This document shows, in pieces, positions 11,242-27,567 of a stretch of 49,077 bases of DNA. Source of the stretch: Candidatus Omnitrophota bacterium (GTDB lineage Bacteria; Omnitrophota; Gorgyraeia; Zapsychrales; JBDRMG01); assembly GCA_043812495.1 (NCBI GenBank), contig JBDRMG010000029.1, positions 1-49,077 of the forward strand, written 5' to 3'. Position 1 is the first letter of the stretch. Each line of letters opens with the position of its first letter. Below the pieces are notes generated by a model that worked only from the letters and a program-made list of their open reading frames with translations, was not told where the DNA came from and ran no database searches. The translations under genes and the position numbers were made by a program.

Positions 11242-11363
11242 CCCGACGCCAGTCCGCCGCAATCTTTTTGGCGGACTGGGTCGGGATTTCCCTCGACTTC
11301 GCTCGGGACACCTTCGAGGGATCCTGAGCGCAAGTCGAAGGGCCGACCTCCAAAGGAGCGTCG
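11242..11363. repeat. Cluster of REP-like hairpins
   Basis: CCCGAC..CCAGTCCGCC/GGCGGACTGG..GTCGGG; TTCCCTCGACTTCGCTCGGGAC; TCCTGAGCGCAAGTCGAAGGG. Confidence 0.7.
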
Positions 11364-12287: not shown

Positions 12288-12361
12288 GGGCCCATAGCTC
12301 AGTCGGTCAGAGCAGTTGACTCATAATCAATTGGTCCCAGGTTCGAGTCCTGGTGGGCCCA
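12288..12361 (+). tRNA. ileX: tRNA-Ile2 (CAT, lysidine type); CCA not encoded
   Basis: Cloverleaf GGGCCCA/TGGGCCC, anticodon arm GTTGA-CTCATAA-TCAAT, GTTCGAGTC T loop; sequence and position after rpoD resemble Ile2 more than Met. Confidence 0.85.
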
Positions 12362-12601
12362 TAAATGAGGCCACAACTTAGCGAGTCAAATGACGAGCTA
12401 AGTTGTCAGGCCGAATTTATCCCGAGTGACCATGATTTTATGTCAAGTCACGAGGGAGCGAAGCTCGTTCTGAATAGAGCGCCAACGAATACAAATTCAA
12501 CGAAAATTTTCCTGCGGAAAATTTTCGGGCCGTCAGATATCCTTTATGGAGATGCCGAGCCTCGTCAATTTTCCTCTGCTTATTTTACAGTGAAAATTGA
12601 C

Positions 12602-12678
12602 GGGCGCATAGCTCAGCTGGTTAGAGCGCTGCCCTCACATGGCAGAGGTCGAAGGTTCAAGTCCTTCTGCGCCCACCA
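12602..12678 (+). tRNA. tRNA-Val (CAC)
   Basis: GGGCGCA/TGCGCCC acceptor, CTGCC-CTCACAT-GGCAG anticodon arm, GTTCAAGTC T loop, ACCA end. Confidence 0.95.
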
Positions 12679-12680
12679 TT

Positions 12681-12893
12681 TGACTTTCCATTATGTAATT
12701 TTTTAGAAAAAGTCAAATGCGTCCCGAGCGACCGTCACAAGTAATTTTGTCGCGAGGGATGAAGATCATTGAAAAGCAAGAAGTTTTCCCTCGTCACGGA
12801 CACTTAAGCAAGAGTGACTCGGGACGTCGCCCCTCGTAATAAATACTTAGAAAAGATGACTCGGGGCTCGCAAGTCCTTCTGCGCCCACCATT
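12681..12893. mobile_element. Gene-less mini-element at the tRNA-Val 3' end, closed by a 23 bp duplication of that end
   Basis: CAAGTCCTTCTGCGCCCACCATT at 12658-12680 and 12871-12893; four hairpins between. Confidence 0.7.
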
Positions 12894-13343
12894 CCGCCTT
12901 CAATAATTCATTTTGAGGAGGAGGCGGAATGTTGTCCCGAGCAACCCTGGATAAGCTATACGTTGCGAGGGATATCACTGCAAATATGTGGTACGTGTAT
13001 ATTCTTAAATGCAAGGACGATACTTTTTATACAGGAATTTCAACGAACGTAGAAAATCGTGTCGCTAAGCACAATCAAAGTAAAGGTTCAAAATATACCA
13101 GATCAAGAAGGCCTGTAGCATTGGTTTATCAAGAAAGTTTTAGCACCAAACACCAGGCTTCTAGGCGAGAAATTGAAATTAAAAAGTTTAGCGTATTAAA
13201 CAAAGAGAGATTAATTGAATTTGGGTCTGGATTGAGGTTTCCCTCGGCTCAAGAATTTAACAAAGGAGCCTCGGGACTTCGTCCCTCGCCGCTAAAATGA
13301 ACTTTAGAGCGGCTCAGGGCTCGCAAGTCCTTCTGCGCCCATT
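12894..13343. mobile_element. GIY-YIG-carrying mini-element closed by a third copy of the tRNA-Val 3' end
   Basis: CAAGTCCTTCTGCGCCCA at 13324-13341; same hairpin order as the preceding unit. Confidence 0.7.
12986..13300 (+). CDS. Small GIY-YIG nuclease (UPF0213/YazA-like)
   Basis: WYVYILKCKDDTFYTG, R...HN, KYTR.RRP..LVY.E, A..RE..IKK; start taken at MWYVY. Confidence 0.92.
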   Translation: MWYVYILKCKDDTFYTGISTNVENRVAKHNQSKGSKYTRSRRPVALVYQESFSTKHQASRREIEIKKFSVLNKERLIEFGSGLRFPSAQEFNKGASGLRPSPLK

Positions 13344-13441
13344 CTGCTTCGCTCCAAAACTTTCGTTTGGGAGCTTCGCAGAACAAGCGAAGCAGAATGT
13401 TCTACGAAGCCAAACACGAAAGTAATTTGGCGAAGTAGAAC
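13341..13441. repeat. REP-like hairpin doublet
   Basis: CTGC-TTC-GCTCC...GGAGC-TTC-GCAG then TTCTAC-GAA-GCCAAA...TTTGGC-GAA-GTAGAA. Confidence 0.7.
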
Positions 13442-13497
13442 ACCAATAGATGTGAAAAATAAATTTCATATGACAAAACAAGTAAAGGTCAAGCATC

Positions 13498-14672: not shown

Positions 14673-15252
14673 ATAATTGACATCGGAGTTCCGACTTCCT
14701 TCTCAAATTTATTTTGAGGAAAAGTCGGGACCCGTTGTCCAGCATCGGGGAGGAAAGTCCGAGCTCCAAAGGATGATGCATCCTGGTAATTCAGGACGGC
14801 AACCGCAGATAACGCAAATTGTAACCGCCGATGTCGCAGATCAATATCTGTGTCATCTGCGATCGCGATATCTGCGGAATCTGCGGTTGCAGGGGTGAAA
14901 CGAGGCAATCTCTGCATGGAGCAAGGCCAAATAGGAGAAGATTCTTATCGCAAGATAAGAACGAAGTGATCCGCTTCGTTTGGATTCTCGGGTAGGCTGC
15001 AAGAGTCCGAAAAGCAATTTTCGGAGTCAGTCAAATGACCATCCATCTCGCTCCGTCTCCGTCAAACACTTAACGTGTTTGACTTCGCCGGATGAAAAGA
15101 TTCTGACAAGTTCAGAAAAAATTGAAATCCGGCGTAGCTGAACACGAAAGTGCTTCGACAAGGCTCAGCATCTTTCGAAGCATCCTGAGCAAGGTCGAAG
15201 GATATTTCAGCGAAGCCGGACGAGAGGTACAGAACTCGGCTTATTGGCCTGT
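14618..15252 (+). ncRNA. rnpB: RNase P RNA, expanded and atypical
   Basis: GAGGAAAGTCCGAGCTCC (CR-I), GGAGCAAGGCCAAATAGG, ACAGAACTCGGCTTA (CR-V); P1 GCAGGCCAA/TTGGCCTGT, P2 GATGGTC/GACCATC, P4 CCGAG/CTCGG. Confidence 0.93.
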
Positions 15253-15254
15253 AA

Positions 15255-15472
15255 ATGAGGATGCGACTTACGGAGCCCGCCATTGTTTCTGTGGCGGGCG
15301 ACGTAAGTCGCTATCCGAATTTACCCCCACACCAATTTTATGTGTGGACAAGAACAAAAAATATGGTTTAAGTATAATTCAAACGTTTTATCTGAACTCA
15401 ACACTGTTTAATAAAATTGGTGTGGGGGTTCAATTCGGCTCGCAACTTGCGTTCCGTAAGTTGCGGCCTCAT
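15255..15472. repeat. Tripartite palindromic element
   Basis: ATGAG-hairpin-CGAAT, central inverted repeat ACCCCCACACCAATTT/AAATTGGTGTGGGGGT, ATTCG-hairpin-CTCAT. Confidence 0.75.
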
Positions 15473-25318: not shown

Positions 25319-25502
25319 GGGGTCGGGGTGTTTCCGACCCCGAAATCCTGAGCGGAGCCCCGACTTTAGTCGAGGCGGAGTCGAAGGATCCATTAACCAG
25401 AGACCCTTCGACTCGCCCTTCGGGCTCGCTCCCCGGCCCGCGGCTTTCGCCGCGAAGCGGCGGGGCGGGCAGGTTGAGCCCCTCGGAAAAAACTCCCCGA
25501 CT
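25319..25502. repeat. REP-like hairpin cluster
   Basis: GGGTCGG..CCGACCC; TCCTGAGCGGAG...GAGTCGAAGGA; CCTTCGACTCGCCCTTCGGGCTCGCT. Confidence 0.7.
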
Positions 25503-27395: not shown

Positions 27396-27567
27396 ATGAG
27401 GCCATGGTTTATGGAGTCCGTCATTGGTTCAGTGGCGGACGACATAAACCATCTGGCCGAATTAACCCAGCACTAATTTTGCATTATCATAAAAATGCAA
27501 AATTAGTGCTGGGTCCATTCGCACTGATCAGTTACGTTCCTTACGGTCACGTAACTGATGTGCTCAT
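27396..27567. repeat. Tripartite palindromic element, second full copy
   Basis: ATGAG...CGAAT + ACCCAGCACTAATTTT/AAAATTAGTGCTGGGT + ATTCG...CTCAT. Confidence 0.75.

Follow-up and report, generated by a model that had tools for sequence, protein, structure and literature searches.

The window analysed here is the stretch of 49,077 nt at positions 1-49,077 of the forward strand of Candidatus Omnitrophota contig JBDRMG010000029.1 (assembly GCA_043812495.1). Within it, the genes of tRNA-Met and tRNA-Val are each followed by long hairpins with tandem G.A mismatches, in the following arrangement.

12288..12361, plus strand: tRNA-Met(CAT), intact, with a lone left-end module behind it
12361..12420, plus strand: nested tandem-GA hairpin from the tRNA-Met 3' end, first hairpin of the left-end module
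12420..12457, plus strand: long tandem-GA hairpin of left-end type, with no right end or tRNA copy after it
12602..12678, plus strand: tRNA-Val(CAC), intact, target of the array; T-loop C56 at 12658, C56-A76 at 12658-12678
12658..12870, plus strand: repeat unit 1, 213 nt, gene-less
12677..12719, plus strand: plain hairpin of unit 1, 5' arm beginning at tRNA C75-A76
12722..12759, plus strand: long tandem-GA hairpin, left end of unit 1
12787..12824, minus strand: long tandem-GA hairpin of the conserved right-end type, at the right end of unit 1
12829..12867, minus strand: second right-end hairpin of unit 1, tandem-GA type
12870/12871: right junction of unit 1, TCG|C
12871..12891, plus strand: copy of tRNA-Val C56-A76, identity continuing 2 nt further, to 12893
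12871..13323, plus strand: repeat unit 2, 453 nt, with nuclease gene
12890..12931, plus strand: plain hairpin from the copied C75-A76, stem different from that of unit 1
12935..12972, plus strand: long tandem-GA hairpin forming the left end of unit 2, with 13 nt between it and the nuclease start codon
12986..13300, plus strand: single-domain GIY-YIG nuclease gene, 104 aa, UPF0213-like (PF01541, E 3.6e-18)
13240..13276, minus strand: long tandem-GA hairpin, right end of unit 2
13283..13318, minus strand: second right-end hairpin of unit 2, CCT-GA form
13323/13324: right junction of unit 2, TCG|C
13324..13341, plus strand: second copy of the tRNA-Val 3' end, C56-A73, with CCA moved to 13443-13445
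13342..13442, plus strand: unrelated double hairpin between A73 and CCA of this copy, with duplicated CA

Cassette anatomy and the GIY-YIG nuclease

Of the seven long tandem-GA hairpins, six delimit two cassettes of 213 and 453 nt that stand in tandem behind tRNA-Val, and the seventh, at 12420, is a lone left end behind tRNA-Met. The units share one order, namely a plain hairpin, a sense-strand tandem-GA hairpin, an optional gene, two antisense hairpins, TCG and the copied C56. The 3' end of tRNA-Val, beginning with T-loop C56, is found again at 12871 and at 13324. The initial annotation lacked the tRNA genes and their duplicated 3' ends, which explain this layout. In most relatives the second right-end hairpin is plain and variable, unlike the tandem-GA form at 12829..12867. 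A paralogous cassette is found on contig C50 of the same genome.

Other hairpins crowd the same neighborhood. A double hairpin of the type at 13342-13442 also follows tRNA-Val in genome G010 (locus L274), and insertions of this kind between A73 and CCA, with duplicated CA, recur after several tRNA copies. The hairpin-rich stretch at 12546-12601, just 5' of tRNA-Val, resembles a stretch 5' of tRNA-Ser on contig C51 that stands behind a GIY-YIG gene. Reads from four DNA sequencing runs, which hold small shares of this DNA, covered mainly the tRNAs.

The cassette protein has PF01541 as its sole domain, and the last ~20 codons of its gene read through the right-end hairpins. Its best solved relatives are UPF0213 proteins (1zg2, 1ywl), and NCBIfam holds no family for it. 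The residues Tyr4, Tyr14, Gly16, Arg24, His28 and Glu61, at the catalytic Tyr/Gly/Arg/His/Glu positions, are invariant in 12 of 12 cassette proteins. These 12 rows fall on one branch with an SH-aLRT of 94; when restricted to residues 1-74, 12 of 14 cassette proteins share a branch with a support of 85, and the other two lie on a separate long branch. These are a quick tree and a FastTree tree, both of few columns, with two long-branch rows left out of the second. A profile search of 151 genomes left a gap in score between 120 and 111 bits; three new matches above the gap have the cassette layout, one of them repeating a seed locus and one having a decayed right end, and none of the 24 matches below the gap has the long hairpin. 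Likewise, a 25-29 nt copy was found near none of the distant homologs at 61 genomic loci, and neither hairpin nor cassette at any of 80 viral homolog loci. The link to the GIY-YIG protein suspected from the initial annotation holds in that the nuclease clade tracks the cassette hairpins.

This genome also has 15 other small or partial GIY-YIG matches, in addition to a UvrC-sized one. The cassette protein is 29% identical to the product of the GIY-YIG gene on contig C64 (52690-53110), which looks Ssn-like or cd10448-like by its signature. That gene lies between inverted short tandem-GA hairpins.

Pairing and arm length of the tandem-GA hairpins

All seven hairpins with the stems and 15-16 nt loops first described are present at their places. 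The CCC-GA start attributed to all of them is found in six, the copy at 13281 beginning with CCT-GA (a T.G pair); the single mismatch reported in the 12829 stem is a C.T, and TAAG, TAAA or CAAG, said to occur in most loops, is found in six of the seven. The elements at 11288, 15184 and 25346, described as short-loop versions, are indeed relatives but lack the 5-bp inner stem, the second pair being C.T, and the one at 25346 holds an inserted hairpin. As a side observation, the RNase P RNA at 14709-15240 (RF00010, 74.7 bits, E 6e-22, below the gathering score) appears swollen near its 3' end by hairpin insertions, including the short tandem-GA copy at 15184.

A relaxed scan of the window found nine such hairpins, these seven within 900 nt and two strays, compared to a mean of 0.63 and a maximum of 6 in 100 dinucleotide shuffles. 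Across the whole genome (1.94 Mb), the tandem-GA core occurs in 68 hairpins, while seven other cores reach 1-7 hairpins each; in 40 of the 68, the GA steps are separated by 25-26 nt.

Covariation was analysed on 88 distinct copies from 103 loci, located at most 800 nt behind a tRNA and picked by their ends alone, with pairing ignored. The mutual information at stem positions 2-4 is 1.47, 1.47 and 1.23 bits, against a permutation maximum of 0.27, and is zero at stem positions 6-8. Of the 352 stem cells, 322 (91%) are Watson-Crick; as read on the GA strand, eight are G.T and nine are A.C. In 36 aligned copies, 98.6% of the cells are paired, a value that none of 500 shuffles reached, that compares with 35-45% in slid controls and that may be inflated by related sequences; both-side changes occur at all four variable pairs. 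Stem covariation is thus seen in both sets, and it bears out in a larger sample the earlier reading of a conserved structure rather than a conserved sequence.

The fixed length read into the loops belongs instead to the whole path from GA to GA, which spans 25-29 nt in 87 of the 88 copies although 14-45 nt were permitted in the collection; many right-end copies came from a length-limited pattern, yet metagenome left-end copies, which did not, fall in the same range. A wider pattern applied to genome G008 added a few short or 18-nt forms. The loop itself is replaceable by a longer stem, since a second tandem-GA family of this genome (25 copies) reaches the same 25 nt via an 8-bp stem and a shorter loop. 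The conserved quantity is therefore the length of the arm, not the content of the loop. Members of this second family occur in the window at 15263-15311 and 27404-27452; they mostly have an 8-bp stem and a 9-nt loop, and are often followed by a CCC-GA hairpin.

In all seven hairpins the GA steps form a symmetric 2x2 GA/GA internal loop. The folding energies are modest (z of -0.4 to -3.4), and the two strands are similar for the three copies folded both ways. The Watson-Crick share of 91%, the lack of any G.T excess in the stems of the 88 copies and the placement of the two ends on opposite strands argue for hairpins that act as DNA rather than RNA. G.T wobbles were considered as a strand marker and dropped after the pairing-blind count of 8 G.T against 9 A.C. 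Sheared tandem G.A pairs are stable, from which we infer that the GA strand is the folded one. A protein that reads a single-stranded structure, as initially suggested, is likely by the precedent of SsnA, a single-domain GIY-YIG nuclease that, according to the available text of its description, binds its hairpin only as ssDNA and on one strand (Chenal 2025, PMC11893778).

tRNA junctions, distribution and a proposed route of insertion

At other loci, too, the cassettes read as left hairpins, an optional GIY-YIG gene, opposite-strand right hairpins and a tRNA 3' copy from C56. The copy is ~21 bases long, from C56 to about CCA, and the original tRNA is intact. It starts at GTT|CRA in 26 of 31 distinct 3' copies (98 loci), and TCG or TTG directly precedes 23 of the 31. 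The layout occurs at 14 anticodon types for eight amino acids, a count that omits one case of another hairpin type. Units of 150-510 nt stack in tandem with or without a gene, and those lacking the gene keep both hairpin types intact. The right cassette boundary lies 4-6 nt 5' of the first antisense hairpin and the left one at the foot of the sense hairpin. On the transcribed strand, most left hairpins follow the tRNA at a distance of 22-47 nt; their 3' arm lies 6-16 nt before the nuclease start codon.

Each copy agrees with the tRNA of its own locus, but the hairpin after it diverges (29-31 of 46-47 identical at three loci), as expected of a target duplication beside donor DNA. Moreover, the copies derive from DNA, because they include genomic bases beyond the tRNA end (a non-CCA flank). 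The point at which a copy ceases to match the tRNA end varies: it is near CCA in some loci, at the left hairpin or within it in the C50 cassette and at L079, L169 and L288, and beyond the left hairpin in a few others. Two further loci, L080 (genome G034) and L108 (G008), have another hairpin inserted exactly at CCC|GA of a left-end hairpin, which indicates that the hairpin foot is itself an insertion site. A kink-turn-like geometry was noticed by eye at the right junction in a few loci.

The core motif is present in 13 of 61 related genomes, against 0 for the reversed control, and genome G008 alone has 23 hairpins with it, mostly at tRNA genes. A metagenome scan for the right-end motif returned 78 loci, several of them near-duplicates. 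A tRNA is present at 28 of the 42 loci whose stem is paired, a duplicated tRNA piece at 22 and a GIY-YIG gene at 13; for the 36 loci with an unpaired stem, the counts are 1, 0 and 0. The right-end motif occurs in seven of 401 genomes of the phylum, once with an unpaired stem, and the motif search of viral contigs gave no match.

A search of 41 genomes gave 30 orthologous loci, and 28 of these loci have the tRNA-Val. The cassette is present in two of the 28 (G000, which is this genome, and G034, from different families) and absent from 26, of which 24 have only 55-180 nt before the next gene. Genome G001 appears to keep a decayed left end. Four loci with tRNA-Met T-arm matches and two with longer variable-loop duplications were left uncounted at this site. 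A different tRNA-Val 3' duplication, starting in the variable loop, is seen at the orthologous site in L258, L260 and L267.

The motif is not tRNA-specific, since lone left modules and the genome-wide tandem-GA family lie mostly away from tRNAs, with 59 of the 68 hairpins of this genome more than 300 nt from one. As a separate observation, partial copies that match the tRNA gene lie within 1.5 kb of 14 of the 41 tRNA genes of this genome, a few of them perhaps by chance. Other hairpin clusters interrupt these copies at the D-loop, anticodon or T-loop (contigs C50 at L161, C57 at L160, C66, C18, C36, C51 and C62), and several of the 15 small GIY-YIG matches are found in their midst.

Altogether, we consider it quite probable that the hairpins are the ends of miniature mobile cassettes that target tRNA genes and are served by their own GIY-YIG clade. 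The mobility is supported by the presence of the cassette at only two of 28 orthologous sites and its motif in seven of 401 genomes, and by the 23 hairpins in G008. These cassettes are tiny and look selfish. It is also probable that the hairpins act as DNA folded on one strand, the nuclease binding the CCC-GA/GA-GGG foot and the arm of 25-29 nt, free in sequence, serving as a length gauge.

How a cassette enters a new gene can be proposed tentatively, by analogy with SsnA, which cuts ssDNA a few bases 5' of its hairpin according to the accessible parts of PMC11893778. In this proposal, which we hold to be plausible but somewhat short of probable, the nuclease would nick a few bases 5' of its hairpin. 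The antisense strand of the target gene would be nicked at T55|C56; on the sense strand, the nick would fall close to CCA or else at an older left hairpin, at its foot. The two 3' ends could then prime host DNA synthesis on a donor cassette by way of the CRA-NNCC and CCA motifs, which are nearly universal. As an outcome, the cassette would be copied in, leaving the tRNA intact and the recipient's own C56-A76 duplicated. Nicking 5' of the hairpin is favored because both cassette boundaries lie in the position where SsnA cuts, and the T-loop and CCA nicks because the same span is read by the phage endonuclease SegB. Priming through universal tRNA motifs would explain both the hopping between tRNA types and the recipient-specific duplication. 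To our knowledge, GIY-YIG enzymes do not join DNA, and insertion would therefore need host repair.

Several findings weigh against the cassette model. The tree support is moderate and rests on few columns, with two of the 14 cassette proteins on a separate branch; the duplication varies in extent; the strand cannot be told from wobble pairs; the 15 other GIY-YIG matches could serve tandem-GA hairpins away from tRNAs; and an empty tRNA gene carries no such hairpin for recognition. A bolder version, which is possible yet rather doubtful, would make the bare GIY-YIG domain the sole element-encoded enzyme of a transposon-like family that combines gauged hairpin reading, nicks at T55|C56 and CCA, and copy-in of autonomous and gene-less cassettes by host synthesis at any tRNA gene, by means of universal tRNA motifs. 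If true, it would represent a new transposition route and a natural tRNA-safe insertion system, and Ssn-like enzymes would spread their own repeats.

Alternative explanations and known systems

Among the alternatives, homing at tRNA genes by a dsDNA endonuclease like SegB fares best, although we regard it as unlikely. SegB is a free-standing GIY-YIG homing endonuclease of T4/T6 (PMC2330249, PMC13096335, in their available text). Here recombination would spread the unit and amplify it in tandem, and the hairpins would be passengers or gene silencers only. In those sources, the SegB site runs from GGTTCRANTCC to CCAR with the cut after CCAR, which is the span duplicated here, and SegB drives tandem amplification of tRNA segments. 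The position of the 3' arm of the left hairpin close to the start codon would suit a silencer as well. However, the cassette protein is a bare catalytic domain, whereas the accessible descriptions give SegB a C-terminal DNA-binding motif; allelic homing does not account for 14 anticodon types with a fixed junction; both hairpin types stay intact in units that have no gene; and no cassette was found at the 80 viral homolog loci.

A domesticated Ssn-like system, now immobile, that restricts or shapes incoming ssDNA or recombination at tRNA loci is still less likely. SsnA lowers transformation by DNA bearing its hairpin, as the available part of PMC11893778 states, and the hairpins here stay under selection for pairing and length. 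Nevertheless, the patchy distribution, the empty orthologous sites and the fresh identical duplications fit recent insertion better.

We find it very unlikely that a tyrosine recombinase acting in trans integrated at the T-loop, with the tRNA copies as att remnants and the nuclease as cargo. Integrative elements usually leave duplicated tRNA 3' ends, which are present here, as are tandem units. By contrast, no recombinase is encoded within the 150-510 nt units, which have either no gene or only that of the GIY-YIG protein, and the nuclease clade tracks the cassette ends. Tyrosine recombinases need the 7-nt loop whole, whereas the identity starts at C56, inside this loop and not at its start. 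A single end design would, moreover, need a separate att site for each of the 14 anticodon types.

It is highly improbable that the hairpins are RNA structures in the trailer of the tRNA precursor, with a role in processing, termination or as a kink-turn-like protein site. The left hairpins do lie close behind the tRNA on its transcribed strand, but in the right hairpins it is the antisense strand that bears the GA steps, G.U is not in excess, and Rfam at the gathering score finds tRNAs only, weaker hits being disregarded. A kink-turn is defined by a 3-nt bulge beside tandem G.A pairs, and this bulge is absent from the symmetric GA/GA loop of all seven hairpins.

The captured or guide-like loops of the initial annotation are the least probable reading of all, since the loops are related by descent (12/16, 13/18, 15/17, 16/16 and 18/18 identical between duplicated units in several pairs), T-rich (41-45%), replaceable by longer stems and without a clear excess of matches in the host genome. 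The last result comes from a search with 0-3 mismatches against eight shuffles per loop, in which the largest gaps, at two mismatches, were 7 vs 2.1 and 31 vs 14.6. Complementarity between the loops of the two ends in 30 cassettes is below shuffled (3.60 vs 3.81). That the sequences differ at a kept length speaks for guides, as do one AT-rich 15-nt loop with a second exact genome match and three duplicated pairs that are identical over 42-63 bases and then differ sharply in the loop, where 7-9 of 16-17 positions agree; these abrupt changes, however, fit a crossover at the hairpin. In the L219 array of three left hairpins, the last combines the 5' arm of the second with the loop plus 3' arm of the first, which points to a crossover within a hairpin. 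Unlike a CRISPR-like or guide array, with same-orientation repeats and unrelated new spacers, the hairpins here stand on opposite strands and have related loops. The loops are inherited spacers, not guides.

The layout of the cassettes was not found described in a literature search that was non-exhaustive, left subscription journals outside and did not recover the Ssn paper either. Among the systems compared, free-standing homing endonuclease genes of fungal mitochondria share a duplicated 3' part of the host gene with one intact copy; they differ in being organellar, with protein-coding targets and long duplications, and conserved hairpin ends are not described in the accessible text (PMC6279837). 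REP/REPIN elements with their RAYT (TnpA-REP) enzymes share imperfect ssDNA hairpins read by a linked enzyme, a gene between hairpins and non-autonomous copies genome-wide; the dispersed imperfect hairpins of this genome are the 68 of tandem-GA type. In contrast, they use an HUH tyrosine transposase and a GTAG tag, with no tRNA duplication in the available text (PMC8266576, PMC3733652), and the term "GIY" does not occur in PMC3733652. Identity with a REPtron was rejected because the enclosed gene encodes a GIY-YIG protein, not an HUH transposase.

SegB, as far as its accessible descriptions go (PMC2330249, PMC13096335), shares a GIY-YIG gene beside tRNA genes of many types, a site from T-arm to CCA, tandem amplification and a hairpin over the ribosome-binding site. 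It differs as a phage-borne dsDNA cutter with an extra DNA-binding motif and allelic homing, and neither hairpin ends nor gene-less units are described in those parts. The C-terminal NUMOD3 region of SegB was not found in the cassette protein, in which PF01541 is the only domain, and phage carriage of the SegB type finds no counterpart in the viral contigs and viral homolog loci searched. Identity with SegB was rejected, as the cassette protein has no DNA-binding tail and is not phage-borne.

The closest published system is that of the Ssn nucleases (SsnA, cd10448) with NTS/SRM hairpins. In the available text of PMC11893778, it shares a single-domain GIY-YIG gene of ~90-100 aa with hairpins on both sides, scattered gene-free hairpins, a proposed IS-like origin, and a cut a few bases 5' of the hairpin on the motif strand, where the cassette boundaries lie. 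Yet the published SRM pattern has no match in the window or in any of 30 cassette loci, and the cassettes are set apart by UPF0213 proteins as the best solved relatives, the tandem-GA foot and the 25-29 nt arm. The tRNA targeting, the fixed T-loop junction, the target duplication and the gene-less two-ended units also have no parallel in the accessible parts of that paper, in whose main text "tRNA" occurs 0 times.

Whether small GIY-YIG nucleases mobilize the hairpin repeats that accompany them was a question left unanswered by Chenal et al. (PMC11893778, available text). The cassettes supply the material for such a test, with exact junctions, duplicated targets, unoccupied sites, units both with and without the gene, and a corresponding clade of enzymes that lies outside the SRM motif. 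In addition, they offer a hypothesis of function for part of the uncharacterized UPF0213 family, with a candidate structure-reading ssDNA nickase, and caution against taking every tRNA 3' duplication in uncultured bacteria for a prophage att site. By analogy, the cassettes may work like an Ssn/SRM unit, although the unmatched SRM pattern makes their membership doubtful, and judged from sequence the targeting of the tRNA T-loop and CCA appears to be new among the small GIY-YIG hairpin systems.
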